Positions 1,459-64,000 of a stretch of 64,000 bases of DNA are shown in pieces. This DNA comes from Malacoraja senta. Taxonomy: Eukaryota. A model generated the notes under the pieces. That model made no database searches. It was not told the DNA's origin and saw nothing but the letters and a program-made list of their open reading frames with translations. The stretch's first letter is position 1, and each line of letters starts with the position of its first letter. The position numbers and the translations under genes are program-made. The DNA lies in the NCBI GenBank assembly GCA_038087875.1, contig CM075991.1, forward strand, positions 1,984,001-2,048,000, given 5' to 3'.

Positions 1459-4163
1459 TGTAGATGAGATATGCATGTGCCTTTAACATAGTGACCTCAT
1501 ACCTACTAACCACTCCCCATATCACAAGTATATCTACAACCTCCCCACCCACAGATCGCTCTCCCGGATGTATTTGGCCATATCCGGCCAATAGAACTGG
1601 CTCCTGGCGAGAGACACGGTGGCTTCGGCCCCAGGGTGACCGCGGTGTGCGACTTGAAAATAGTGGTCGTGCAGCGCCGCGGGCAAGACCACTTTGTGAC
1701 CCTTCACCACCACGCCGTCATGCAGTACGAGCTCATCCCGAATCAGGAAGTAGGGCACGGCACCAGCCGGCAGTGCCGAACGACGGTCAGGCCAGCCCTG
1801 CCGGATGACGGCAGACAGCTGTTGCAGGGCAGGGTCATTGGTAGTGTGTTCAACCAGGGACTTCATCTGCTGCGAGGGGACGATGTTCAATCGTAGCACC
1901 AATAACTCAGACATTTCATATTGGTGGCGAGCGGTGGACGTCAGCGGGGCGCGAGACAACGTGTCGGCCACGAACATGTCCTTGCCCTTACGATAAACCA
2001 CCGTGAACGTGAAGCGCTGGAGCTGCAGCATCATGCGCTGCAGGCGTGATGAGGCCACATGGATCGATTTGTTGAGGATAGTGACAAGTGGCTGATGGTC
2101 AGTTTCGACGGTGAAAGTGTTGCCCATGATGTAGTCCCGGAATTTGGAGCAGGCAAACACCACGGCCAGTAGCTCCTTCTCAATCTGCGCGTAGTGCTGT
2201 TCGGTGGCGGTCATGGTGCGGGACGCGAAGGAGACAGGCAGCTGCAGGCCGTCATGGACCTGGAGACAGGCGGCACCGAGTCCGAACTGAGAGGCGTCGC
2301 AGGTGAGGACAATGGGACGCTGCAGGTCAAAGAACTTGAGCGTGGGGGTGCTGATCAGCTTAGACTTAAGAATGTCAAATGCCTTCTGATGGTTGGGTAA
2401 CCAAAGCCAGGAGGTGTCCTTTTTGATCAGATCCCTCAGGGGAGCGCTGAGCTCGCTGAGGTCGGGGATGAACTTCCCCAGGTAGTTTACCAAGCCGAGG
2501 AAGCGTTGCAGGCCTGCCACATTGTAGGAGGGGGCATCCCTGAGATGGCAGCCGTTTTCTGCGGGTCTGGCTTTAATCCCTCAGCGGTGAATACATGTCC
2601 AACATAGGTGACCTCCGAGACGCGGAATCGGCACTTCTTGGGGTTCAGTTTCAAGTTGATTTGCCGGGCCCGGTCCAGGACCAGGCGGAGGTTGACATCG
2701 TGTTCGGCAACGTCCTTACCTCGTGTTCCACCTGCAACAGCCTCGTGTTCCACCTGCAACAGCCTCGCCCCCCATCAGCAGCGTCAGCCGCTTCTACAGC
2801 AGCCCGCGCCCGAACTGCCCTGGATGGCGCTTGCCGCTGACATTTTCGAGTGGCGGGGCAAACATTTCCTGGTTCTCGTTGACTCCTACTCCAGCTGGTT
2901 TGTGGTCGACCGGCTGCATTCCGTGACCTATTCGGCCGTCATCGACAGGTTGTACCCTCATTTTGGCACTTTTGGTCCCCCGGCAAGCCTGCAGTCGGAC
3001 AATGGCAGCCAGTTCACGAGCTCCGAGTTTAAAGCGTTCGCTTCCAGATGGAACTTCCGCCATTTCACCAGCAGCCCGGAGTACCCGCAAAGCAACGGTT
3101 TGGCCGAGCGCGCAGTCCGCAGTGCTAAGCACCTGTTGGAACAGTGTGGTGGCATTAACTCCGACTTCCATCTGGCCCTCCTCAACCTTCGGAACATTTC
3201 CCGCGACTCTGCCATGGGTTCACCTGCTCAGCGGCTCATGTCTCGCGCTACCAGACTCCCGCTCCCTGTGGCCCAGCGCTCCCTCATACCCTCCATCCTC
3301 CCACCTGCTGCGGTTCAGAAACGCATTGCCTTCAGGCACGACGTCCAGCAGCGTTCCCATGACAGGTCCTGCCACCCGCTGCCGCGCCTCTTCCCCAGTC
3401 AAGTTGTCCGTATGCAGACCGCTCCCGGTCACTCCAAGCTCGCTACTGTCGTCGGCTCTGCGGGGTCGCCCAGGTCCTATTTCGTCGACCACGCTGGAGC
3501 CATTTACCGACGGTCCCGCCAGCACCTTCGGCTCGTCAACGAGCCGCGTCCTCCTGCCGCGGATCCCTTTGCTCCCCCACTGCCTGTTTCGCATCAGGGC
3601 GTTGCTCTGCCCGTCCTTCCTGACATGCAACGTTCTGCTCCTCCTCCGCCCCTTCCGTTCCATCCCACTCCGACTAGTCCTCGCTCGACTGCCCGCGCTC
3701 TTCCCGGTCCCGACCTCGCATCCCCTCCGGGTTCGGTGCCGCGGTCTCTTCCGTCTCCTCCCGTTTCTCCCTTTCAGGTTCGTCTTTCCCCGCCGGTGCC
3801 TCATCCTCCTGCAGGAAGGGTGGATGGCGAGACGCGAACCGGGCGGGACGTCTTGTCAAACCGCCTGACCGCTATGGCGATTTTGTTTAACTATCCTAGC
3901 GCATGAGCCGTGGTCGCCATGTCACCATTGTATTTGCCTGTCGTTTCGAAGAGGAAAGATGTAGATGAGATATGCATGTGCCTTTAAAATAGTGACCTCA
4001 TACCTACTAACCACTCCCCATATCACAAGTATATCTACAACCTCCCCACCCACAGATCGCTCTCTAGTTCCTGTGACAGACCACGTACAGCTAGTGCTAT
4101 GTGTAATGCTCCAGTATGAATAAAGATAGTAAAGTAACGACGCCTCGTTATGAATCCTTTACA
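1459..4163 (+). mobile_element. Gypsy LTR retrotransposon, internally deleted and inverted
   Basis: TG...CA 3' LTR at 3960-4163 preceded by a polypurine tract; 5' LTR remnant 1459-1564; 5-bp TSD GTTGT at 1454-1458 and 4164-4168. RT/RNase H on the - strand (LTCDASQFGLGA, YAQIEKELLAV, TDHQPL) and integrase on the + strand (VDSYS, SDNGSQF, QSNGLAER). Confidence 0.95.
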
Positions 4164-15978: not shown

Positions 15979-16560
15979 CTCTGCAGAGGGTAGTGAGGGG
16001 AGCAGAGAGGATCATTGGCTTACAAGAACTGTTCCAGAGCCGCTGCCTGAAAAAGCACTGAGCATTGCAAAGGACACACTGCACCCCCTCCACACACACC
16101 TGGATCTCCTGCCATCAGGCAAGAGATACGGCAGCATCAAAGCCCGGACAACCAGACTGCTAAACAGCTTCCTTCCACAGGCTGCTAAACAGTCACTCCA
16201 CCTGATTCTGCTGCTTTTTTTTTGCACTGACACTTTGAATGAATGAATGAATGAATGAATGAATGAATGAATGAATGATAGAATGAATAGTTTATTTCGG
16301 TCATTCATTAAAAATAACAAAACTTTACAATCTGTGTGAATATGAATCAACACTGTATCCAATTTCACACAATGTTCACATAATCAATGACCGAAAAAAG
16401 AATAGGCTGAAGCCACAAAGCTTATTTTTGCCTATCCTATACAATCCATAAAATAACCCAGAATATCAGCATTACAACGGAAAGAAAATAAATAAAATTT
16501 ACTCTAAATTGTAATCCTTACTTATTTTACATTTTAATCATTTTATATTATAATCCTTAA

Positions 16561-19500
16561 TTTTACTTCGGAGTCACGACAGTGATTCCATGAAGAAGAC
16601 CCGTCAGGGCGCATGCGCGTCATTACGTTTGACACATTGGCGCACGGACCAGCGGGAGGACAGAGCTCCTCCTGTGGTAAATACTTTTAAAGTAATTTTA
16701 AACTCCATCTAATTGGGAAAACTTACCTGGAGTAAGAAGTTGTTTTGCTGTGGTGCCGTGCTTTGTTTTTATACCAGGCACCGTGGTTGAAGACGACCAG
16801 GGGGAGGCGAGCCGCCGGTAAGCAGGTGAGCCGCGGGAATGTGGTCTGTGAGCGGCTGCCTCATACCCCTGCACAGTCGCCGACCGGGAGCGGGGCGACT
16901 GCAGACTCCGTGCTACAAAGCACCAAAGCCAACGACAGTCGGGCATAAGGCCATGGGGAAGTCTGGGAGGCCCTCGGGCTCAACTGAGTTGGGCCGCGAC
17001 GAGTCCCGTACGGGGCTGGAGACCGTTTTTTAAACGGTTATCCCAAATGGAGCACCTCATTCAGGGGTTGCTTCAGTAACGCACACTCCAGGGGGAGGAG
17101 TCGTGTGGGCGGCAGGCCTGCAGAAGAGGCCGCGCCGGCAGCACCTGGAAGAGGGCTGCTTGAAGCACCTCATGGATGAGGTGAGTGCAGAGGGTCAGCT
17201 AAGTTCTGACCCCGACTCTGACGGTGACTTGGAACTTAGCGAAGACGGCCGTTGTCAGAGGTCCATTCTCTGGCAGCACGATTCGCTGTCTCGTCAGAGT
17301 CTGGTGTGCCAATGGGAGAAGAGCTGGCCTCCACGATATAGAGGCTGCTGGATAGCATCCTCATTGAAAAGGCACCTGCAGAGGGTCAGCTCAGTTCTGA
17401 CCCGACTCTGACGGTGACTTCGTTGACTAGCGAAGACGGCCGTTGTCAGAGGTCCATCTCTGGCAGCAAGATTCGCTGTCTGGAACTGCCAAGAAACAGG
17501 AAACCCGGGTAACTGCGAGTTGCTGAAGGTGCCAGCAGTGAACCGGGTGATATGGAGCCAGATGGGCGTGGGCGTGCAGTGCCCAGGTAATGAAGCTGCA
17601 GAGAATCCTGAAATTACTTGGCTCAGGAATCACGGCGTTCGCTAGAACGGTGGATGGAGGGCATCTGTTGGAGAAGCAGCAAGAGGTACTAGGGTTGCTT
17701 TGTAGCGCCCATTTTGAGATAAATTGTCTCAGGGAAAGTGCCATTCGGCCCACCATTAATCCCAAGTTTGCAGTACTCTGCCAGCCCATCAACATACAGC
17801 CGGCCAACCTACTCTTCGGAGAGGACCTCGCCAAGCGTGTCAAGGACATGGATGAAGAGGCAAAGACGGAGGGTTGATCAAGCCACCGGCGGTCGGCAAG
17901 TTTCGAAAAAAGAAAGCACCGCTACAAACGAGGCTGGACCAGGAACAAGTCGGCCGCAATGCAGATGTGCAGGTGGCATTCTGCAGCGGGAACACGGTCA
18001 AACGTCGGCTTTCCGCCAGGAGCCGGGGACAACGTGATCCACCAGGTACCAAGGAGGTAGGTGGGCCTGGTTCTCAGGTGCACATATCAAATGTGACACA
18101 ACTTAAATCTGGGGGTACATTACATCTGTTCTGGGATGAATGGAAGCAAATTATCTCAGCTCTGTTTATACTGAGTGTTATTCAAGGGTTTCGAATGGAG
18201 TTCAATCCCAATTGTGATTTGCACATTCAGCATGTTCCTGGGAGAACTGTTCAGTTTTCATTAACAGAACAGATGGATGTTTAGACTGTGCTTGTGTGAT
18301 AAAGGTGTAATTGGAAAGTCGGTTCACCAACGCCATCAATTTGTGTCTAATATTTTCCCAGGCCAAAAAAGGATGGGGGATGTAGTGGAGACTTTGTAAG
18401 ATGGAATTGTCACTGCCAAGCAACTGGGTCAAGAGGATGCTATATGGCGACTATAGAGCTTAAAGATGCAGATTACTCAATGTCTGTTCATTTGCAGGAT
18501 AGAGGATATTTGAAATTCACCTGGATGGATCAACTATGGCACAAAATTGTTAAAACCTATAATAGGCATGCTGAGAGGCCAGGGTCAGGTGCTCATGGCT
18601 TATCTCGATGATATCTTGATTACAGGGGTATCCAAGAGAACAGCTGAAGTAACCGGTGGTAGTTGTTAAATCCAATTTTCAATGATTGGGCATTATCCAT
18701 CCAGAGAAATCCAAATTAACACCTGACTATTTGGGTCACAATTGATTCAATTAAGTGACTCTGCCCAGGGGAAAAGGGTAGAGCTAATTGACAGCAGTAT
18801 CAAGCTAATGGAGGCACTAAGGATACATTCGGGTCATTATAATAGACCTATGCAGTTATCAGCAGAGGCTGTTTCTGATTTGCAATGGTGGATTCACCAT
18901 GTGTCCAGGAGTTCTAGCAAGATAGTGCTTGACCAGCCTTCCATGATTTTGCAGATGAATGTCAGTGCACTCGGTTGGGTTGTCACGGATACGAGTTTCA
19001 GCTGTGGAGGCAGATGGACTGAGCAAGAGGCATCGCTTCTGCAGACATGAGGAATTAACTATAAAGAGCTTTTTATGGATAAGGCTTATTGCTCTAACAA
19101 AGGTAACCTGCATGTTCAGTTTCAGATTGACAATATTACGGCAGTGGCATATATATTAATCACATCGGTGGAATCAAGTCGGTATCTTGTGACAGATTGG
19201 CTAATCAAATTTGGGCCTGGTGTATTGAGAAAGATATTTGGTTTTCAGCTATTTATCTACCAGGTAGATTCAACATAGTAGCAGACGCCAAGTCACGGAA
19301 GTTCCATGACAACACAGATTGGATGTTGAACCAGGAGGTGTTCAATAATATAGTACTTATATATGAATGCCAGATATCGATTTGTTTTGCATCGAGGTTT
19401 AACCACCAGCTGCCTAAATATGTTTCATGGGAACCAGACCAGGGGGCAGTTGCAATTGATGCTTTCTCGCTACATTGGGGTGGTATGTTTTTATATATTT

Positions 19501-21810
19501 TCCCACCATTCTGCCTCATAGGTCGGAGTCTGCAAAAATCAAGCAGGATGCCGCTTCGGGGGTGCTTGTAATACCTAATTGCCCGACTCAAGCTTGGTTC
19601 CCTTTGATGTTACAGTTAGCGATCCAACCTCCTTTGGTGGTTCCCAAGCATAGGAATTTATTGGAGCATCCGCTAACACGGAAAGGCATCCGTTATGTGA
19701 TCGTATTTGACTTGTTAATTTGCAGGTTTTAAGAAGGCCATACCTGGGGCGAGGACTGTCTGGGCGAATGGTGGACATGCTCACTGCAGCCTGGAGAAAG
19801 AGTACACAAAAGCGGTATATTACTTATGTAAAAAATGGGAGCAATATTGTGTACAAAATAATATTGACTATAGTACTGCAGGTATTGTGGATATTTTAGA
19901 GTTCCTGTCGACACTCTACGATGATGAGGGGCTCAGTTATATTGCCATTAATACAGCTTTACGTGCTTTGTCCTCGTATATTTTGATGGTGTCAGGAAAA
20001 GATCCTATTGGGTTTTCATCATCTCATAGCTCGATTGATGAAAGGAATTTCAACTCCAAACCTCCTAAACCCAGGAATATGGCGATCTGGGATGTAAGTG
20101 TGGTCCTCAAGATGCTTCGACAGTGGGTTCCTGTCACGTCTCTGAATTTGCCAAACTAACCATGAATGTGGTCATGCTCATGGCATTAGTTCAGCATAGC
20201 GAGTGCAGATTTTGCAAAAGTTTCAGCTAGACAGGATGGAAGTGGCTGAAGAGAATGTTATGTTATATATTTGCGCCCTGCTCAAACAGAGCAGGCCAGG
20301 TGTCACAGGTTTGTTAAAATTGTGTAATGGTACATTTATTTTCATTATATTGAAGCTACAAGGACCTTAAGAAATGTGAAACAGGATTGTTTATCAGTTA
20401 CAAGAAACCACACAGGAGAGTGTCAGTGCAGACTATCTCAAGGTGGTTTAAATCAAATGTTGATTCAGGCAGGTATTAACACTGACGTGTATATATCTTT
20501 TTCCACTAGTGCAGCAGCAACGTCGCCGGCTAGGGCGATGGATGTTCCCATCGACCATATTCTTACAGGTCAAATGAATTGCTTTTTCAATTTTTTTTTT
20601 ACCATCGGCCGATTGCCGATCGGGGAGAGGCTGTTTGCAAATTCAGTATTAAGTTCTGTTTAGTTTTCCCTGGGATAGAGGGGTTACTGTGTTTTGATTA
20701 TTCAAATCAATTGTTACTGCATGATATTCAAATTTCATGTTTAACGCATTATTGATTGTTTCTCATCCGAAGTCAATCAATGCAGTGAGAAGCCTGGATT
20801 TGAATCCGCGGCATAAAATCACAGAGCTTTGAACTCTTCATGGAATCACTGTCGTGACTCCGAAGTAATCATAGCAAAAGGATTTGAGTATAGGAGCAGC
20901 GAGGTTCTACTGCAGTTGTACAGGGTCTTGGTGAGACCACACCTGGAGTATTGCATATAGTTTTGGTCTCCAAATTTGAGGAAAGACATTCTGCCATAGA
21001 GGGAGTACAGAGAAGGTTCACCAGATTGATTCCTGGGATGTCAGGAATTTCATATGAAGAAAGACTGGATAGACTCGGCTTGTACTCGCTAGAATTTAGA
21101 AGATTGAGGGGGGATCTTATAGAAACTTACAAAATTCTTAAGGGGTTGGACAGGCTAGATGCAGAAGATTGTTCCCCGTGTTGGGGAAGTCCAGGTCAAG
21201 GGGTCGCAGTTTAAGGATTAAAGGGAAATCCTTTAGGACCGAGATGAGAAAAACATTTTTCACACAGAGAGTGGTGAATCTCTGGAACTCTCTGCCACAG
21301 AAGGTAGTTGAGGCCAGTTCATTGGCTATATTTAAGAGGGAGTTAGATGTGGCCCTTGTGGCTAAAGGGATCAGGGGTATGGAGAGAAGGCAGGTACAGG
21401 ATACTGAGTTGGATGATCAGCCATGATCATATTGAATGGCGGTGCAGGCTCGAAGGGCCGAATGGCCTACTCCTGTACCTATTTTCTATGTTTCTATGTT
21501 TCTATGTAAAATAGTAAGATTAAACGAGAACTTACCAGTTTGAAGTTTGATCTTTATTTTATGAGGAGTTACGTTGGTGATTACGTGCCCACCACGCCCA
21601 ACCCGCTCTCATAAAAGGTCATATGGTAGTTTTCATGTTGCTCATCTTACTATGTTACTTCAAATATTCTGTTATCTGTGATTTCATACCGCTGCTTTGA
21701 AGATTGACGCGCATGCGCCCTGATGGGTCTTCTTCACGTAATCACCAACGCAACTCCTCATAACATAAAGATCAAACTTCAAACTGGTAAGTTCTCGTTT
21801 AATCTTACTA
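16561..21810 (+). mobile_element. DIRS1-type tyrosine-recombinase retrotransposon: complete termini, decayed ORFs
   Basis: Left ITR 16561-16622; right ITR plus extension about 21705-21810; internal complementary region at about 20836-20868 and 21506-21586. Remnants of gag, RT (YLDD), RNase H, methylase (FASRFNHQLPKY, IFPPF) and recombinase. Confidence 0.92.
20869..21505 (+). mobile_element. CR1 3' fragment inserted into the DIRS internal complementary region
   Basis: Same subfamily as 7052-8060, with (TTTCTATG)n tail; splits CCGAAGTAA|AATAGTAAG. Confidence 0.9.
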
Positions 21811-22917
21811 TTATTTTACATTTTAAAGCTTTTTTGAAACTCAACAGAGAGCTACAAAATTTCAACATCACTAAGCCCGTTCCATAATTTGACTCCCAAA
21901 ACTGAGACACATCTATATTTTACATTGATTCTCACTTTACATGTTTCAAAAATACACAACCCTCTTAAATCATAATGTCCTTCTCTTAATTTAATTTTTT
22001 TGAATACTAATAGGAAGGCTTTTATTCCTAACTCGGAAAAGTATTTCTAATGTCTTTACATGCACAATATCCAAAAAATTTAAGGTACCGGACTTTATGA
22101 ATAATGGATTTGTAGTTTCACGGTAAGAAGCTTTATGTATTATTCTAATAGCTCTTTTCTGGAGTTTAATTATAGGGTCTATATTTGTTTTATATACACT
22201 TTACTAACAAACTCTGGCACTGCCCACTTAAATCATCAGCCCTGGACAATTTATGACTGTTTTTACTTGTATTTTAGTGTTGTTTTTTACCTGCACTTTT
22301 AAAAAACTATTCCTACTGTTTTTATCCGGGGCTGGATTGTTTTTATTTATGTGTGAAATGTTTAAGTTTTATGTGTGATGCTCTGGTATTCCCTGGGAAA
22401 CGTCTTCTCATTTTGCACTGTACAACTGCTGCTTTGCAAGATGACAATAATAAAGGATTTGATTTGATTTGATTTGAACACACGCGCTGCTCCCGATGTT
22501 AAAAAGTCATTTAAAAAAGGGGTTTGGGCAACTAGATCTCCTCAACTTGGTCAAGAAGGCCCACTTCAAAATGTTCAAGAAGGAACTGCAGATGCTGGAA
22601 AATCGAAGGTAGACAAAATTGCTGGAGAAACTCAGCGGTGAGGCAGCATCTATGGAGCGAAGGAAATAGGCAACCCGTTGGGTTTCGGCCCGAAACGTTG
22701 CCTATTTCCTTCCGAAATATTGCCTATTTCCTTCGCTCCATAGATGCTGCCTCGCCCACTGAGTTTCTCCAGCAATTTTGTCTACCTTCCACTTCAAAAT
22801 GTAATTGCTCCTCTACTTACTCCAACCTGCGCGATATATCCACTGATGAGGTGTTTGCGCAGTGATCAACCAGAACCAGATCTCATTCTAAGTGTTGGGG
22901 GGGGAAAGAAGTCAAAG

Positions 22918-50027: not shown

Positions 50028-50291
50028 TGTCGCTGAAGCAGAGGTCGGAGGTGGAACTGTACTCCACACACCCGGGAGACTCGCTGCAGCTGCGCTGCCG
50101 ACTGCGTGAGGACATCCAGGGCATCGCGTGGACCAAGGACGGGGTGCAGCTGCCCGCCAACAACCGCACCCGCATCACCGCCGAGTACCTGCAGATCACC
50201 GACTCGGTGCGCCAGGACTCCGGCCGCTACACCTGTGTGGCCAGCGGCCCATCTGGCAGCGAGACCTCCCACTTTGCCGTCAACGTCTCCG
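50028..50291 (+). CDS. FGFR1: FGFR1 Ig-I (D1) exon
   Basis: [59 protein letters not shown] matches FGFR1 D1. Splice sites CCTGCAG| and G|GTATGT; 264 nt, phase 1/1. Confidence 0.95.
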
Positions 50292-52792
50292 GTATGTGAG
50301 GGGCAACAACGAGGATACACCAGTGGGCCTGGTTTAAACCAAAGATAGACATTAAAATGCTGGAGAGAAGGAATGGGTGACGTTTCGGGTCGAGACCCTT
50401 CTTCCCTGGGGTCTTCAGTTTAGTCTAGTTCATAGTCACGTGTACCGAGGTACAGTGAAAAGCTTTTTCCTTGCGTCCTATCCAGTCAGCAGATTACAAC
50501 ATGATTACAATCGATCCATTTACAGTGTACAGATACATGAGAAGGGAATAACGTTTAGACAAGGGAAAAACGTCACTGTCACGGTGGCGCAGCGGTAGAG
50601 TTGCTGCCTTACTGCAAATGCAGCACCGGAGATCCGGGATCGATCCCGACTACGGGTGCAGTCTGTATGGAGTTTGTACGCTCTCTCCGTGACCTGCGTG
50701 GGTTTTCTCCGAGATCTTCGGTTTCCACCCGCACTCCAAAGACGTACAGGTTTGTAGCTTAATTGGTTTGGTAAATGTAAAAAACAAATGGCCCCTAGTG
50801 TGTGTAGGATAGTGTTAATGCTGGTCAGCGCGGACTCGAAGGGCGTGTTTCCGCGCTGTATCTCTAAACTAAACGTTTGGGTAAGGGAATAATGTTGAGG
50901 GTTTTGGGCCAGAGTGGGAGGCTATGTCTGCCATCCCGTAGTGATTAGGTTCTGAAGGCCCCGAGGACGGACACCATGGGCCTGGGACCTTGGATCATGA
51001 GGATTTGAAACTTGGGTCTTGGGCACGGCGGTGTTTTTAAGTTTATTTAGAGATACAGCACGGCCCTTCGGCCCACTCGGGTCCGCACCAAACAGCGATC
51101 CCCTCGCACTAATACTATCCTACACACACTAGGGGCAATTTTACAATTACACAAAGCCAATTAACCTACCAACCTGTACGTCTTTAGAGTGTGGGAGGAA
51201 ACCGGAGAAATGGGGGAAAACCCACGTGGGTCACGGGGAGAATGTACAAACTCCGTACAGACAAGCACCTGTAGTCAGGATCGAACCTGTGTCCCTGGCG
51301 CTCTAAGGCACTAGCTCTACCGCCCCGCCACCGTGCTGCCCCTTAAGGGGTCTTGGGCGCTGTGATTGGGGTAGTGAGGGCACCTAGGAGGCTCACATTT
51401 GGCCTGGGATCTTGGACAAGGGGATCTGAACCTGGGCCCCCCTGGTGATGTGGGTGGTGAGGACATATAGGAGGGACACCAGGATGTCCGAGGTTGCACC
51501 ATGGCGGCTGAGTCTGGGGTCTTGGGAATGGATGATTGAGGCAGTGAGGGCCGAGGGGAACCACCAGTAGTCCTGGGGTCTCGGATCATGCGGGGGGGGG
51601 GGGGGGGGGCTGAACCTGGGGTCTTGAGACCCAGTGAGTTGGGTCTTGGGCACTGATGATTCAGTGGCCCTTCAGAATTAAAGGGCGGTCTTTTACAAAG
51701 AAAGTGAGGAAGAACTGGGGTCTTACACCTGAAACATTGACCTCCAATTTCAGGTAGTCCCTACTTTCTCCCTCCTTCCCCTCCCCTTCCCAGCTCTCCC
51801 ACAGCCCGCTGACTCCGCCTCTTCCTTTCTTCTTCCTGCCCCCCCCCACCCCCTCATCAGTCTGAAGAAGGGTCTCGACCAGAAATGTCACCTGTTCCTT
51901 CGCTCCATAGATGCTGCCTCACCCGCTGAATTTATCCAGCATTTTTGTCTACCTTCTGGTTGGTGGCGGGATGGTTCAGTTGCCTGATGACAGCAGGGTA
52001 GAAACTGTCCCTGAATCTGGAGGTGTGCGTTTTCACACTTCTGTGCCTCTTGCCTGAAGGGAGAGAAGAGAAGAGGGAGTGGCAAGGGTATCCGTGACTG
52101 GTCCTTGATTTTGCTGCTGGCCTTGCCGAGGCAGCGTGAGGTGTAGATGGAGTCAATGGAAGGGAGGTTCGTTTGCGTGACGATCTGGGCTGCGTCCACA
52201 ATGTTTTTTTCAATGTGTACACTCGATGGCAGTGTACCTGGGTTCGATCCTGACCGCGGGTGCGGTCTGTGTGGAGTCTGCACGTTCTCCGTGTGACCTT
52301 GTGGGTTCCCCCCGGGTGCTCCGGTTTCCTCCCACATCCCAAAGACAATAGACAATAGGTGCAGGAGTAGGCCATTCGGCCCTTCGAGCCAGCACCGCCC
52401 TTCAATGTGATCATGGCTGATCATCCCTAATCAGTACCTACTTGCCAGGTTCCTGCCTTCTCCCCATATCCCCTGACTCCGCTATTTTTAAGAGCCCTAT
52501 TTAGCTCTCTCTTGAAAGCATCCAGAGAACCTGCCTCCACCTGCCTCCAGGCAGAGAATTCCACAGACTCACAACTCTCTGTGAGAAAAAGTGTATCCTC
52601 GTCTCCGTTCTAAATGGCTTACTCCTTATTCTTAAAGATGTGCGGGTTTGTGGGTTAATCGGCCTTTTGTCGATTGTCCCCAATGTGCGGTGGGGGGGGG
52701 GGGTGGATGAGACAGTGGGCTGGGTTGTGGTCGGGGAGACTGGTACTGTGGGCGAGCTGTGATCCCTCACTCGCCTCTTGTCTCTCCTCCAG

Positions 52793-52906
52793 ACGCCGTC
52801 TACTCCGTGGAAGAGGACGACGAGGATGAGGATGAGGATGATGACGAGGTCGAGGAGGACGATGACGAGGGGAACAAGTCGGATGAGAAAAGCAACAAGG
52901 AAGCAC
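52793..52906 (+). CDS. FGFR1: FGFR1 acid-box exon
   Basis: (D)AVYSVEEDDEDEDEDDDEVEEDDDEGNKSDEKSNKEA. Pyrimidine tract plus CAG| acceptor, C|GTGAGT donor; 114 nt, phase 1/1. Confidence 0.9.
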
Positions 52907-53681
52907 GTGAGTACAGATGGGCTGCGGTCAGTCGGCCTCTGCCGAAGCTGTCCGTGCCGAAACTGTCTCTGCAAAGCTGTCTCTATGGAAGCTGAAGATA
53001 AGACACAAAAAGCTGGAGTAACGAAATGTTCCTTCTCTCCAGAGAAGCTGCCTGTCCCGCTGAGTTACTCCAGCTTTTTGTGTCCTATCTTCGCCATCAG
53101 ATATATGTGGCTATCCAAAAGTGTCCTAAACGCCACAATGGCATCTGCCTCCACCACTACCCCTGGGAATGTGTTCCAGGCCCCCGCCACCCGTCGAAGT
53201 GGGAGGAAACCGGAGCACCCGGAGAGAACCCAGGAGGTCACGGGGAGAACATGCAAACTCCACACAGACAGCACCCGAGGTCAGGATAGAACCTGGGTGT
53301 GTGGATCGGTGAGGCAGCTGCTCTGCCTCAGGAAGATTCGAAAAACTAGAACTACCAGATGACCCTTATGAGAAGAGGGTTGGGAGCGGAGGGCACGTAA
53401 TCCCTCATCGTAACTCCTCATAAAATAAAGATCAAACTGGTAAGTTCTCGTTTAATCTTCCTATTTTACTTCGGAGTCACGCGAGTGACTACGTGAAGAT
53501 TTCAAAGCTGTGATTTCATGCCGTGAACACGAGTCCATGCAACACACTGCATCAGTTCACCAAAGATGAGTGAAAAATAACAATGCATTCAGACATGACA
53601 TAGATTTAAAACATGCTCATCCTTTTAGTAAACAAATGATATATATGAAAATAATAGTGACCCCTCATATCCGGGGGTAAA

Positions 53682-54659
53682 CTATAAAACAGAACTTAAA
53701 ATTGAGTTGGCAAACAACCCCGGCCTGGCAATGGGTTTATAATAAAACATTTGGAATGTTCGCGCGTTTGACCATCCTGCAGCCGCTAGGATGTGGCCCA
53801 GCGGAACCTCCATAATCCTCGCTGCTGATGTTGCTGCAGCCCTGGTGGAGTGAGATTTAAAAACATCAGTGTCCACTCCTGCACAAGCCAAAACACGTCT
53901 CAACCACCTGGAGATGGTCTGTACAGATACCTTCTTGTGAGGTTTTTTTATAACTAGCTAACATAGCTAGTTCAGTGCCTCTGAGGCTCTTTGTGGCCTT
54001 AAAATACTGTAGTAGATGTGTGACCACACACAACCGAAGGTCCATGGGGTATGCCATAAACTCTAGTTTGAGACCTGACGCCCCTGGTCTGCTCTGCTTG
54101 ACTAAGTCATAAATATAAAATGTTATTTTATTGGCAGATGTAACCATTCTGTCCAGTCGTAGCTTATGTAACGACTGGACCCGTTGCGCCGAAACCAGCG
54201 CCATGCGCATAACCACTTTATAAGTGAGTTTGACCAAGGACAGGGATGTAGCTGGAGCCCACCGCCGAAGCAGCATCAGCACAATGTTAATATCCCATAT
54301 CTCCGAGTACCTTGGCCTGGGGGGATTTGTGTTGAAGATACCTTCATAAACCTGGATATCAGTGGGTGAGACCTGACAGAGTGGTGTTACGATCCCAGCA
54401 GCAAGTATGACGACAAGGCATTTCTGGCACAATTAATGGCACTATAACTCAATCTCTCGTCAAAGAATAGTTTTGAGAGAAATTCCAGTATATCCGTTAT
54501 ACATGCCGTGTCATATGTTATGTTGGACTGCAAACAGAACGCTTCCCATCTCTTGAGATAGGAGATGTACTGCTTCTTGGTGCTATCCCTCCAAGCCGCA
54601 GTGATCACGTCCACAGTTCGATCTGACAGTCCGAGCCCCAGGAAAGGTCTTCTCAGGGT
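53682..54659 (-). pseudogene. DIRS tyrosine recombinase ORF (frameshifted)
   Basis: AWRDSTKKQY SAM-like region, SAQRVQSL, HSTRAAATS, AAGWS, FYYK. Confidence 0.88.
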
Positions 54660-54669
54660 CTGCAAATCA

Positions 54670-56590
54670 ACAAATTGATTTAATCATGCAGCGGATGGTT
54701 CTCCCCAGCCACGGGGTGAACCAGCAGATTTCTGCATTTGGGAATGGCCATAAAAGTCTCTGATATCATTCCCAATATTAGTGCGAATGATGGCTGCGTA
54801 GGCCAGTCAGGCACTACCAAAATGCCTGAAGCGGAGTCTTGCTGTATTTTTTAAAGCACCAACTGATGAGGCAAAATGGAGGGAATGCATAGAAGAACAT
54901 TCCTCCCCAGTGTAGCGAGAATGCATCAATCGACACTTCCCCTGGGTCTGGCTCCCATGCAACATACTTTGGTAACTGGTGATTGAGCCTGGATGCAAAC
55001 AAATCGATATCCAATGTTCCATACCGGGCAACAATATCGTTAAATACTTTATGATCCAACATACATTCTGTGTTGTCATTAAATTTTCGTGACCTGGTGT
55101 CCGCCACCATATTAAACCTACCTGGCAAGTAGGTAGCTGAAATCCAAATGTTTCTTGCAATACACCAGTGCCAACTGAGGTTAGCCAAATTATCACAGGA
55201 TACTGACTTGATTCCACCCATGGATTAATATATGCCACCGCAGTAGTGTTGTCAATCTGTAGCCGAACATGCAGATGATGCATATTCCCACAATAAGCCT
55301 TCAACCCATAGAATGCTCCCAGCATCTCTAAGTAGTTAATACCACGTGACTGAAGAATTGATGACTCATGTGCATCCCATTTGCCACCGCTACTAGAGAT
55401 GGTATTAGTAGCTCCCCATCCTTGAGCACTAGCATCAGTTTGTAATATAACTGAAGGTTTGCTGACCAAAATGTTACTGAAGCAATGCCGAATATTGGTC
55501 GTCCACCATTGTAACTCAGAAATAGCTTCAGCTGGTAACTGCATAGGTCTGTTAAAACGACCTGCATGGTATTCGAGTGCTTGCTCCTTTGCACGTTGTA
55601 AAGCCTGATAATGCAAAGGCCCAAACTGTGCAGCTGGAAAAGCAGCCACTAATTTGCCAATTACACTGGCTACTTGTCGTATAGATGGTTGCTCCATAAT
55701 TATAAGGTTGTTACAGGCTACTATTAATTCTAATCTCTTGCCCCAGGGCAGAGTCACAGACATGTTAATAGAGTTAATGGCAAATCCCAAATAATCAATA
55801 ACTCTAGATGGTATCAACTTGGATTTAACTGGATGGATGAGAAACCCCAATCTCTCAAACATGAGTTTAGTGGCTGAAACAGCGAATTTAGCTAATTCCA
55901 GAGTTTTCCCTATGATTAGGATATCATCCAAGTATGCCATAACAATATGATTTTGAGCTCTAAGTAGACCAAGCACCGGTTTCAATAATTTGGTAAATAA
56001 TCTGGGGGCTGAAGTTAACCCATAAGGCAATGCTTTAACTGCCACAGTTGCCCCATCCAGTTAAACTTCAAATATCTCCGGTGATCCCTGTGAATGGGTA
56101 CCGAATAGTATGCATCTTTGAGATCGATACATGCCATAAAGCATCCTTTGGAAATCAGTTGTTTGGCAGTAACGAAGTTTTCCATTTTTAAATGTCTATA
56201 CTGCACAAAAGAGTTAAGTTGAGTCAAATCAAGGATGATTCGGAATCCTCCATCTTTCTTTTGTCTTGTAAATATATTAGAAACGAATTGGTGATGTTCA
56301 TGACTCGACTTTTCAATTACCCCTTTTGTATATAACGTTTGAATTTCAGCTTGTATATCCAAACCTTCCTGTTGTGAATGAACAAATGTCCGGCTTGGTG
56401 TATGCTGTGTGGGTGGCAATGAATTGGGAAGGAATTCGATTTGGAACCCTTGTATACTGTGAAGTATCAACGGAACTGATGTTATCCAACGCCATTCATT
56501 CAAAAACAAGTGTAATCTCCCACCAACTTGTAACTGGTCCACACATCCCATGTTCCGGAAAGAACCAGACCCACCTACCTCCATGGTTAC
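54670..56590 (-). pseudogene. DIRS RT-RNase H-methyltransferase ORF (frameshifted)
   Basis: FRIILDL, IDLKDAY, LPYGLTSAPR, YLDD, TDASAQGWG, INYLEM, IDNTTAVAYIN, DLFASRLN, YAFPPF. Confidence 0.88.
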
Positions 56591-56699
56591 TGGTGGCTGT
56601 ATGGTTTCTATTTCCGCCCCCCGATGTTTGGGGGGTAGGGTTGCTGGAGTGCGCGGGTTGCGCATCTTCCACGAGGGCCGGCCTGGGCCTTGGCCTAAA

Positions 56700-57861
56700 A
56701 AAGACTTCTGCCCAGAGGATTCGGCCTTTGAGCTGCCACAGCTTCTGCGAACCGCTTACTGCTGATGGAAGTGTAGGGGTGCTGCAGCCGGAATGGTGAA
56801 GCTTTGCTTGTCAATGGAGCCTTTATCAGCCCGACAGCTTTCGCTTATTCGTCCAGGTCTTTAACCCGTTTCGGCAGATCTTCTCCGAACAGAAGATTCG
56901 GCGGCTGGACATTGCTGGCCCTGCACAGCCCCGCAAATTTGGGGTTCAGGGCAGGTCGGATGGCGTTTTTGCGAAAACAGTTAATTTCGAAATGTGCGTT
57001 GCACATTAACGCCAGGGCATCCTGCTGTACATCTGACAAGGGACCCCCATCCACAGACCTGGTAAACGCCGTAATGCCTGAAGCTAGCAATTTCAGGATT
57101 CTCTGGAGCTTCATCTCCTGGGCTTTGATGCCCCCTCCGATGTATCCCCAGGTAGAGCTGTTCACAGCCGGCACATTCAGTGAAGCACAATTCCCAGGTG
57201 TGTGGTACTTTGCAGATGTTTCCACCATTACCTGTTCCTGCAGTTGGTGCGATGTGAGGTAATTAATGCTCGCTGCTAGATCCTCTTGCAGCGGCTCCCC
57301 TGTTTGCGAGGGTATCGCAAACTTCGACGCCATGGCAAGCAATTCTTGTGCTTCACGCACATCGTGCATTGTGGTATGCTCCCCAGACATACCTCCAAAT
57401 TCTGAGTCAGGCCAGAACTGACCCCGTACGCTCCCCTCCTCAGAGAGGGAGATATTATGCAGCCCTGGACCAGGCGCTGCCGCGGGCCCCCGAGGAGACC
57501 CGCGCTGATATAACTACGTTTCCCGGAGCATATCATGATGGAGCATCCTTTCCATAAGGTGCTCCATCCGGGATAAACGCCCGAAGACGCTATCCATTGT
57601 AGGAGGCGAATCCTCCTGGCCTGACTCGTCCGAGTAAACAGGCCTGTCAGACTTCTTCTTGGCCTTCCCCCCTTTCGGGGTTGCCAAGGTGCTTTTGACA
57701 GGCACCAAGTCTGAAGTCGCTGACTGCACCGTCAGCGACTCGGATGGCGAAATCGACGGCCGCCGGCTACCCGCACTTCCGCGGTCCTTCGTAGCTGGTT
57801 TCCCCGCGGCCCGTCTGGACTGCGCCCTGGATTTTGTCATGCTTAGTTCGAACTTGCAACT
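56700..57861 (-). pseudogene. DIRS gag-like ORF1 (frameshifted)
   Basis: ORFs 57514-57870 and 56845-57390; homologous to 17590-17877 of the first DIRS (MKLQRILKLL, NLLFGEDL). Confidence 0.8.
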
Positions 57862-58829
57862 CTGTAACAAGATTTTACCGAAACAAACAACCTCAGAATA
57901 AGTTTAAAACTTACCTGTAGGGCTTTTAAACTTACCGCTGGAGGAACGACGCCAGTCGTGCGCCATGCGTTAGACGTATTTGAACGCATACGGGCTGGCG
58001 GGCTTCATCACGTAGTCACTCACGTGACTCCAAAGTAAAATTAATAACCGCACTGGTGATGTGTTGAATGAGGGTATGGTTTATGGCTGGGACAGGATGT
58101 AACTGAAGCAGGGGAGTGGGAGCAGAATCGTTGAGCTTCTGGTTGCAGGGACAAGCTTGCTCACCAATCCCTGTTGCCCGTGACGATAACAAATACATCG
58201 ATGAAAGCACTCTGTAGACACGGAGGCCTCTTTTGTTCTCGTAGATCGATCTCATGCTAAGATTGATCTCAGCTCTAAAGGTGTGCCAGTGAAGCCACTG
58301 TGGTTCCTCCTTTGTTTTCCAGCCAAGATGCTCATGACTCAAGGCTGAGCAGAATTTACACTTGAATGGTTGTCTCGAAGAGCATTCTCACTCCCACAGC
58401 TCAGTGCCACTGCAGTCGTTAGCAGCCTTGCCAGGAAATTAGACAGCTCTCTTTCACACTTCGCAAGGAGGGCCCCTTTAAGGTTCTTGATCAAGTTTAC
58501 CACGGGCGCTGTCTGTACAGAGTTTGTACGTTCTCCCCGTGACCTGCGTGGGTTTTCCCCAAGATCTCCGGTTTCCTCCCACACTCCAAAGTCTTGAGCC
58601 ATTAGATTCGGAAGGAACTGCAGATTATGGTTTAACCGAAGACAGACACGAAAAGCTGGAGCAACTCAGCGGGTCAGGCAGCATCTCTGGAGAAAAGGAA
58701 TGGATGACGATTCGGTTCGAGACCCTTCTTCCAACTGCTTTTCAGTCTTTAGTTTAGAGATACAGCACGGAAACAGGCCCCTCAGCAGCTGTACATCTCT
58801 GCGCTCATGCCTACAGACATGCAGGTTGG

Positions 58830-62305: not shown

Positions 62306-62496
62306 AGCGATCCCCTCACCGGCCCATTCTCCAGGCGGGCCTGCCTTCCAACAAGACGGTGATGGTGGGCAGTGATGTGGAGTTTATGTGCAAGGTCTAC
62401 AGCGACTCCCAGCACCACATCCAGTGGCTCAAGCACGTCATGGTCAACGGCAGCAGCTTCGGGCCCGATGGCTCTCCCTACATCCAAGTGCTGAAG
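62306..62496 (+). CDS. FGFR1: FGFR1 Ig-IIIa exon (D2-D3 linker and first half of D3)
   Basis: [69 protein letters not shown] is the FGFR1-type motif. 191 nt, CCCAG| acceptor and AAG|GTACGT donor. Confidence 0.96.
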
Positions 62497-64000
62497 GTAC
62501 GTCCTTGGCCGCCAGCTTTGGCCAGTCTAGGCTTGGATGAGGTGGGGACGGTCGACTCAGATGACTGCCCGTGGGTGGGCATAGACACGATGGGCCGAAT
62601 GGCCCGTTTCCACGCTGTACCACTATTTGACATGGTGGGACCACGGGTGGGGCAATCATTGCAGATGGGTTTCCTATGGGTGGGCATAGACTTAATGGGA
62701 TGAATGGCCTGTTTCCACACTGTACGCCTCTATTGGACAACCCGCCCAGGTGCGTTTGATCATTGGACGAGGTGTGGGCGGTCAATGCACATGGGTTCCC
62801 ACGGGTGGTCATGGACATAATGGGCCGAATGGCCTGTTAGCAGGCTATATGACTAGATCAGACTGGCTGCGCATATGTGTGCTTCATCTGATTTGGCATG
62901 AATGAGGGGGAGGGTGGAGACAGTAAGTGAAGATGGCTGCCCGTGGGTCGGCATGACCAAGTGGGCTGAATGGCCTGTTTCCAGGCTGTAGAGCGTTTCC
63001 CCAGACAACGTGGATGAGGTGTGGGTGCAAGAGGGAACAGGCTGCTTGGGACTGTCCCCAGAGAGTGCTCATGGCTGCCCCTGGAGGTTGGAGGGCCACA
63101 AGACATCATTAGAGTGTCGTCTGCTCAGAGCTGCTCATCCTGATATTAACCCTCGCTCGCAGGGGAGAGTTAAAGAGCCCTTCCCTCCTGTCCACAGTCA
63201 CGTTCGCCTAGTGTTAGGCGACCAGGGTGGCACGGTGGCGCAGCGGGTAGAGCCGCTGCCTCACAGAGCCAGAGAGTTAGCTTCGATCCTGGCCTCGGGT
63301 GCTGTCGGTGTGGAGTTTCCACGTTCTCCCTGTGACCACTAGGTTTGCTCCGGGTGCTCCGATTTCCTCCCACATCCCAAAGACGTGCGGGCTTGTAGGT
63401 TAATTGCCCCTAGTGTGTAGGGAGTGGATGAGAAAGTGGGATTACGTGGAACTGGTGATCGATGGTCGGCGTGGACTCGGCGGGCAGAAGGGCCTGGGTT
63501 CCATGCTGTATCTCTGAACTAAACTGGTGTAGACCTTTGTTTAATTTCCCTTCAAGGTGTCAGTGGCTTCAAGGGACCATCTACGCCCATGGCAACTGAG
63601 GGCGAGGGATAGATATCAAAGAGCGTGGACACTGTGTGGGGTTTGCTCTGTGCACCGATCAGCTGTGATCCTCTTCTGCCCTCGACCTTCCCCGGAGATA
63701 GCCCAGGGGTACCCGATCTCTCGTCCTCCCTCCCCCGTCCTGGAAATACCAACGGGTTCCTTGGAGATGAAAGGCGAGGTCCTCTGAGGGCAGATTATCC
63801 CAGGGATCAGAAGTGTGATGGGACAGTGCTGGAGTTCACAGCTATAAACCCATCACTGATCAGACATCCCAAAGCAAAACGCCGCAGATGCTGAAAAATC
63901 TAAACATAAAGCCCACGAACACCGGGGGCCACTGTAGAGTTGCTGCCTCACAGCGCCAGAGACCCGGGTTCGATCCTGACTACGGCTGCTGTCTGTACGG

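Follow-up and report, generated by a model that had tools for sequence, protein, structure and literature searches.

A stretch of 64,000 nucleotides (nt) from Malacoraja senta (NCBI GenBank assembly GCA_038087875.1, contig CM075991.1, positions 1,984,001 to 2,048,000 of the forward strand; hereafter the window) contains two decayed DIRS1-like elements, a family A copy on the minus strand (53330..58041) and a family B copy on the plus strand (16560..21817), which are 65% identical over pol and the tyrosine recombinase (YR). The comparison of these copies with their relatives suggests, with a probability that we put at roughly 60%, that YR is made by splicing out the 1.9-kb segment encoding reverse transcriptase (RT), RNase H and a methyltransferase, from a phase-0 donor to a phase-0 acceptor, the predicted product being a Gag fusion that starts at the ATG of gag itself. 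The candidate in-phase partner of the YR acceptor is a donor at the gag/pol boundary, which is absent from an earlier reading of the window (the original prediction) in which one leader mini-exon with an ATG was joined in frame to gag, to pol or to YR. The unspliced RNA would yield Gag and Gag-Pol, either as one open reading frame (ORF) or through a -1 shift at U UUU UUA, and the removal of pol (donor 56579/56578 to acceptor 54659) would yield Gag-YR. The fusion to Gag would bring YR into the particle, and only the unspliced RNA would be copied into DNA.

For families A and B, the 39 best matches to each 5' end were compared, which are not random copies; the family A sisters are 87-95% identical. 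Sixty further elements, obtained partly with a Phage_integrase search and partly as the first matches to a terminal motif, form 12 further groups beyond A and B. The codon alignment omits family I (2 copies), in which the donor anchor was not found.

The internal donor of the family A copy reads ATG GAG/GTAGGT (56562..56584, minus strand, the stroke marking the cut at 56579/56578). It lies in phase 0 of the pol frame and is retained in 34/36 sisters. Its counterpart in family B, AAG GAG/GTAGGT (18051..18073, cut 18056/18057, plus strand), is exact in 32/36 copies and has no ATG before it. GAG/GTARG is found at one homologous site in all 34 aligned copies, representing 11/11 families, and is followed by a conserved G/U-rich stretch that extends to +14. 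With a third-position identity of 0.93 (mean 0.635, standard deviation 0.087), the donor accounts for the top 3 of 530 four-codon windows along pol and is the strongest synonymous-site constraint in this gene. Its GAG is the only one of 9 conserved glutamate columns that is fixed on GAG, GAA being 2.5-fold more common, and its valine is the only one of 17 valine columns fixed on a single codon. The donor also survives amino-acid changes, with GTA AGT or GTA AGA in family E and CAG/GTA in three family A copies. The RT-RNase H-methyltransferase body of pol (54653..56578, minus strand; frameshifted in this copy) is the predicted 1.9-kb optional intron. As a candidate spliceosomal intron, it has a GT donor and a YAG acceptor of matching phase and is constrained at the nucleotide level, the donor being strong and the acceptor weak.

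The YR acceptor, TTGATTTGCAG (54660..54688, minus strand), lies about 1,920 nt downstream of the internal donor and ends immediately before 54659, in frame with YR, exactly as originally described. Its CAG is present in 33/33 copies, a branch-point-like TGAT is located about 26 nt upstream, and the site overlaps the last pol codons (LLICR). The equivalent acceptor of family B (19715..19725, plus strand) is likewise in phase 0, with CAG in 21/25 copies and an in-frame Met at 19777. Across 11 families, 33/34 rows have YAG at the homologous position, the remaining one lacking the region, and the site is in phase 0 with YR. The T at the branch-like position is fixed in 11/11 families while the encoded residue varies between H, Y and C. 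The YR frame opens only 12-24 nt ahead of the acceptor. In 9 of 16 distant loci the alignment runs from YR residues 1-2 onward, and the conserved protein therefore starts at the acceptor.

The YR ORF of the family A copy (53682..54659, minus strand) is broken and has no Met in its first 22 codons; intact relatives match the Phage_integrase and SAM-like domains. The absence of an ATG at the 5' end of YR, as originally proposed, applies to family A (23/27 parsed copies have no Met among codons 1-22) and to I and J, but not to B, C, D and E, where an in-frame Met occurs at about codon 17 (B and D), codon 18 (C) or codon 3 (E). The conserved acceptor and its phase support the earlier suggestion that splicing to 54659 or 19725 is a likely route to YR. 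A frameshift from pol to YR at the pol stop was rejected, as no slippery heptamer was seen there.

A metagenome scan provided 16 loci with 38-46% YR identity. Nine of them are distinct distant elements, once the near-duplicates L171, L173, L174, L178 and L179 (of L172) and L176 (of L175) and the decayed L184 are dropped. The distant elements have no acceptor at the homologous place. Their best acceptor near the start of the YR frame, 0-42 nt from the frame-opening stop, is in phase 0 in 8/9 cases, for which the chance is near 0.001 at one third each, with a search span and a simple pyrimidine rule chosen by the analyst. Control sites in the pol body are in phase 0 in 4/19 cases. These acceptors have moved about 200 nt upstream and are still in phase 0, and the YR frame is open from them for up to 82 codons. 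A phase-0 donor is present 63-129 nt before RT in 4/5 distant elements with upstream sequence. In L169, which encodes a fused Gag-Pol of 1150 aa, there is no Met before the YR domain.

The window copy also carries a strong acceptor-like site with a long pyrimidine run and CAG (54863-54871, minus strand), about 204 nt upstream of the YR acceptor and near the place where the distant relatives have theirs. As an entry to YR, this site was rejected: the frame closes before YR in the translated copies, and families C, D and J mostly lack the site. Splicing there could give a truncated Gag product.

The way in which gag precedes pol determines what would be joined to YR. The gag ORF of the family A copy runs from its own ATG at 57840 (56610..57840, minus strand); it is interrupted by stops around 57515 and 56846 and by a frameshift close to 56745. 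Families C and D have gag and pol fused into one ORF (1161 and 1051 aa from stop to stop), with gag in frame up to the donor in 9/10 C copies and 8/12 D copies, so that the spliced product would be Gag-YR. The single Gag-Pol ORFs of L109, L115 and L169, of 1051-1161 aa, show no match to a protease domain. A different layout is seen in A, F, G, H and J: gag terminates ahead of the donor, with pol in the -1 frame (16/28 A copies). Around this -1 relation, T TTT TTA is present in A, F, G and H, and T TAT TTA in the one J copy.

The sequence TTTTTTAG, which ends at 56695 as originally reported and was taken there for an acceptor-like motif preceding RT, lies in a region that reads TCT TTT TTA G (SFLG) in the gag register. 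The motif is real; the T TTT TTA G at 56695..56702 (minus strand; gag register in most sisters) is better read as a likely -1 frameshift site, although the choice is not settled. An X XXY YYZ heptamer in the upstream frame together with an open -1 frame is found in A, F, G, H, L175 and L172, and in imperfect form in the J copy. The distance from heptamer to donor is 2 mod 3, which keeps the frame, in 8/10 copies over five families. The SFLG heptamer recurs in L175, with an 8-bp stem located 7 nt downstream; in L172, a T-run is not followed by AG. We therefore lean slightly towards -1 ribosomal frameshifting as the way in which the split families would reach pol. A splice from the leader to TTTTTTAG, with pol using its own start, is a possible alternative to which we give about one chance in three. 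T6AG is present in 27/34 A copies, and the pol frame is open from it in 19/34. The acceptor reading is kept alive because A, F, G, H and M have an ATG two codons ahead of the donor; this ATG is missing in J and in three A copies. A further reading of TTTTTTAG, as the stop of gag, was discarded as an artefact of the window copy's own frameshift.

Several observations weigh against the proposed expression plan. The fused families have no clear source of free Gag under it. The gag/pol frame of family B is mixed (13 copies +1, 9 in frame, 8 -1) and too scrambled to call. Hairpins are predicted downstream of the heptamer, but none stands out against shuffled sequences (z -1.1 to +2.2; -1.7, -1.4 and -0.6 in a second set). 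Among the distant elements, the junction lacks a donor in L172, the acceptor is not in phase 0 in L182, and out-of-phase donors are present nearby as well in L169 and L180. In the genome, no donor-to-YR join was found, against 1647 unspliced family-A-type donors, and no intron-less leader, against 780 family D leaders; the search for donor-to-YR joins of family D, which has no denominator, also gave zero. The lack of spliced genomic copies fits the selective copying of unspliced RNA and also fits an absence of splicing. Contigs of four sequencing runs, compared with the minus copy, gave no joint at a predicted site among the 15 of 104 joints listed, which come mostly from the largest run; as an RNA origin of any of the runs is only guessed, this speaks neither for nor against splicing. 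The YR acceptor is weak here, with at most 9/14 pyrimidines, and many sites in pol score as well. Part of its sequence is set by the LLICR codons of pol, and 5/15 other arginine columns are also AGR-only. In B, D and E, a leader splice could allow YR to be translated from its own Met. Descent from one ancestor means that the 11 families are not independent. While the sites, their phases, their conservation, the single Gag-Pol ORF of C and D and the -1 relation of gag and pol are read directly, the mechanism is built on DNA comparison, from which we infer that donor and acceptor are actually spliced.

The conservation after the internal donor raises a further difficulty, as it extends to +14, past the extent of a donor. 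The stretch from +7 to +20 (56562-56572) is complementary to the codons for WEPDP (54944-54957), about 1.6 kb downstream. This pairing, which was noticed post hoc, is the best partner in 12/34 copies (F, J, A, D and one E) and is weak in C and B. The donor stretch may be an RNA-pairing element that forms a long-range helix across the predicted intron, and part of the constraint may be structural. It is conceivable, albeit unlikely, that the conserved motifs serve such a non-splicing role altogether, as a U1 block of early polyadenylation, as a long-range helix or through protein constraint, with YR being produced by reinitiation after the pol stop, from a non-AUG start or from an internal promoter. 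The absence of spliced genomic copies, the overlap of the weak acceptor with pol codons and the pairing with the WEPDP codons would all suit this explanation, and in a plant Copia element, U1 at a donor is reported to keep transcripts from terminating early (PMC5580714). However, neither U1 nor a helix requires phase, whereas the donor and acceptor phases match in 11 families, and the distant acceptors keep phase 0 in spite of their shift.

Regarding the leader, the motifs of the original prediction are exact. The minus-strand copy has an ATG at 57989, GTAAGT after 54 nt (57936) and 75 nt (57915), and TTGTTACAG up to 57861, in frame with gag; the plus-strand copy has an ATG at 16613, a donor after 16676 and acceptors at 16777 and 19725. 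On paper, the minus-strand copy is consistent with an ATG-bearing mini-exon. Nevertheless, its phase-0 leader of 18 or 25 codons is not a family feature, as it arises from a private 10-nt deletion (57950..57955, minus strand) found in 0/39 sister copies. In 36 other family A copies with a measurable distance, the ATG is 64 nt from the first donor in 28, 65 nt in 6, 57 nt in 1 and 85 nt in 1 (first donor mutated); the second donor is at 85 or 86 nt in 31/33. The leader is thus in phase 1 in 28/36 A copies, and also in 31/35 B copies. The phase of the plus-strand copy, which had been ascribed to decay, corresponds to the 64-nt spacing of 31/35 other family B copies with a measurable distance; the B leader is the typical state and the window A leader the accident.

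The leader ATG is present in 37/39 A and 39/39 B copies, and a 20-nt gap, found in 11/39 A copies, would bring it into frame with gag (64+20 nt). It is missing at its position in C (0/11), D (0/18), H and K, among which are the two families with the best-kept ORFs. The palindrome found there reads CACG, CCTG or CAGG, forms which we take to be variants of an NRF1-type promoter site. In the window family A copy, the ATG (57989-57987) is at +51, inside the inverted terminal repeat (ITR; +10 to +62), and the transcript of Dictyostelium DIRS-1 lacks most of the left repeat (PMC7192593). In almost every copy the ATG and YR are in different frames, and the unspliced leader frame closes after 25-45 codons. 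A common mini-exon bearing the start codon is largely refuted by its phase, and we regard it as highly improbable. Of the features expected to be conserved, the donors and acceptors are kept beyond chance, while the ATG and its phase are not kept across families.

The leader splice sites probably delimit an intron of the 5' untranslated region (UTR). In the family A copy, donor 1 (CG/GTAAGT, 57930..57935, minus strand; GT in 39/39) is 74 nt from the gag acceptor and donor 2 (AG/GTAAGT, 57909..57914, minus strand; GT in 37/39) only 53 nt. The gag acceptor (57862..57870, minus strand), the likely end of the 5'-UTR intron, has AG in 38/39 copies. The ATG of gag follows it at 19, 20 or 21 nt in family A (6, 11 and 16 of 39) and at 6 nt in 32/39 family B copies; such free spacing points to a non-coding exon. 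In the family B copy, the leader intron and the gag start span 16677..16785 (plus strand; donor GT at 16677), with GTG at 16783 where 38/39 sisters have ATG. The gag acceptor originally proposed for this copy is present as a motif, but it is a variant of that copy and not the family site: 32/39 sisters have ACAG, 6 nt, and then ATG in the context GCACCATGG. Families that are only 63-77% identical share, where the 5' end was recovered, a leader donor between +115 and +152 and an acceptor a short distance ahead of gag. The implied introns measure 48-77 nt in five cases and about 100 nt in B, and their shortness may favour retention. L165, a 1.3-kb internally deleted element, has kept both termini and a shortened leader.

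The strong leader donors, often two, which are found in every family with a 5' end examined, could also be joined directly to the YR acceptor, as in the expression of a retroviral env, with the leader being non-coding and the translation of YR beginning at the first Met of YR itself or at a near-cognate codon. Such a plan could coexist with the removal of pol. It would account for the position of the second donor, which at 53 nt (A) or about 48-55 nt (F and G) from the gag acceptor leaves little room for a splice to that site. In B and D the first ATG past the YR acceptor is usually in frame, at codon 17, with a Pfam SAM-like match from residue 19, and an early Met is found in 5/8 distant elements with a phase-0 acceptor. 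On the other hand, the first ATG past the acceptor is out of frame in 23/27 A copies and 13/13 C copies, and likewise in I and J, the conserved internal donor is left unexplained, and a junction pattern search found no leader-to-YR genomic copy. We consider this plan quite unlikely and retain the fusion of YR to Gag through the internal donor as the preferred reading.

The assignment of these elements to the DIRS1-like group, as originally made, is supported by RT, YR, the methyltransferase, the ITRs and the internal complementary region (ICR). The RT matches RVT_1 with an E-value of 4e-11 in the window copy and 2e-22 in the related copy L115. The YR of L115 matches Phage_integrase (E 4e-12) and SAM-like domains; the window YR fragments, which are 60-70% identical to it, have no Pfam match by themselves. 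No Pfam match to RNase H was obtained on the proteins of this genome, where the region aligns to that of L169, which has weak matches. A Dam-like methyltransferase after RNase H is weak and below the cut-off (E 0.043 in the window copy, 0.0027 in L109), and is above the cut-off in the relative L169. The gags of these elements have no Pfam match to LAP2alpha. At the left terminus (57980..58041, minus strand), +1 to +36 are complementary to the ICR (53390..53499, minus strand, located by self-comparison) and +10 to +62 to the right ITR of intact sisters. Both pairings are present in 8/10 copies compared, L109 having the ICR pairing only and L070 shorter matches. One DNA contig joins 58014 to 53401, which fits the similarity of ITR and ICR. 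Ngaro and PAT elements were rejected, as their split direct repeats are not observed and the terminal repeats are inverted by self-comparison. The right ITR of the window family A copy was not found, a short interspersed element (SINE)-like repeat beginning at about 53330.

The right ITR of the family B copy is at 21705-21817, and its ICR is split by a fragment of a long interspersed element (LINE; about 20869-21508), at or beside the junction of the ICR halves. The gag of family B contains a 140-nt internal duplication (17154-17481, 87% identical) that is found in many sisters. Because many B copies have frame breaks in common, part of this family may have spread non-autonomously. The family A copy is located antisense within an intron, between FGFR-like exons. 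The vertebrate character of the window is indicated by a match of 50036-50290 to the first Ig domain of FGFR1 (E 6e-34); FGFR1-like exons are seen on the plus strand at 50036-50290 (Ig I confirmed), about 52770-52860 and about 62350-62500, among them an acid box and a later Ig exon that are read from the window sequence. At 1534-3906, Gypsy-like RT/RNase H and integrase frames are on opposite strands, which suggests an inverted or rearranged fragment of a long terminal repeat (LTR) element. Genome-wide, one 30-nt terminal motif of the DIRS1-like elements has 14,716 exact matches, many as pairs about 4.4 kb apart.

In simple retroviruses, gag-pol is expressed by a -1 frameshift and env by splicing out gag-pol, from a major donor in the leader to an acceptor at the end of pol, with the unspliced RNA serving as the genome. 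The elements described here have the same U UUU UUA heptamer as HIV-1 (PMC4373837). Unlike retroviruses, they have a recombinase rather than env as the last ORF, and the likely donor is internal and in frame, giving a predicted Gag fusion; they also have no protease, integrase or env, and the copies of this genome show no significant stimulatory hairpin. The spliced gag mRNA of Ty1/Copia elements is similar in that the donor is near the end of gag and two products come from one RNA (PMC5580714). In contrast to the Copia splice, which yields Gag alone with early termination, the splice predicted here would swap Pol for a second enzyme.

As in the DIRS1-like elements described previously (PMC3266345, PMC9210276, PMC7192593), gag, RT/RNase H/methyltransferase and YR are accompanied by ITRs, an ICR complementary to both ends and ATT/TTT termini. 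Those papers describe three separate, often overlapping ORFs. Here, on the contrary, two families have a single Gag-Pol ORF, in five gag and pol overlap with a -1 relation at a T-run heptamer, and leader and internal splice signals are present in all. Spliced or frameshifted expression of DIRS1 was not mentioned in the available text of the literature searched (including PMC7192593, PMC4495291, PMC3266345, PMC9210276, PMC5633606, PMC3783388, PMC6681497, PMC9341512 and bioRxiv 2026.05.21.726589), and an earlier mention in the founding papers is possible. The LAP2alpha exons of TMPO and of ZNF451 were co-opted from a DIRS1 gag, and a splice acceptor on the colonizing sequence was inferred in that case, not shown in DIRS elements (PMC4495291). 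In the families compared here, an acceptor precedes the gag ATG by 5-53 nt and resembles this case, to which the link is by analogy, as these gags do not match LAP2alpha.

Tentatively, a general plan can be outlined for animal DIRS1 elements, which we rate as somewhat less than an even bet. Gag-Pol would be made from unspliced RNA (as one ORF or by an HIV-type -1 frameshift), and Gag-recombinase by removal of pol, with a mobile acceptor that keeps its phase and a helix between donor and methyltransferase that tunes the splice; the 5'-UTR acceptor would be the entry for the exonization of DIRS gag in mammals. The available text of the DIRS papers searched does not address how the third, ATG-poor ORF is expressed from one RNA. 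If true, the plan would imply that a vertebrate element which is not a virus uses a frameshift of the retroviral type. With about 14,700 terminal-motif matches, thousands of sense-strand donors and acceptors could interfere with host introns. The splicing of pol as an intron, if true, predicts a recombinase linked to Gag, and would bear on how this enzyme reaches the cDNA.

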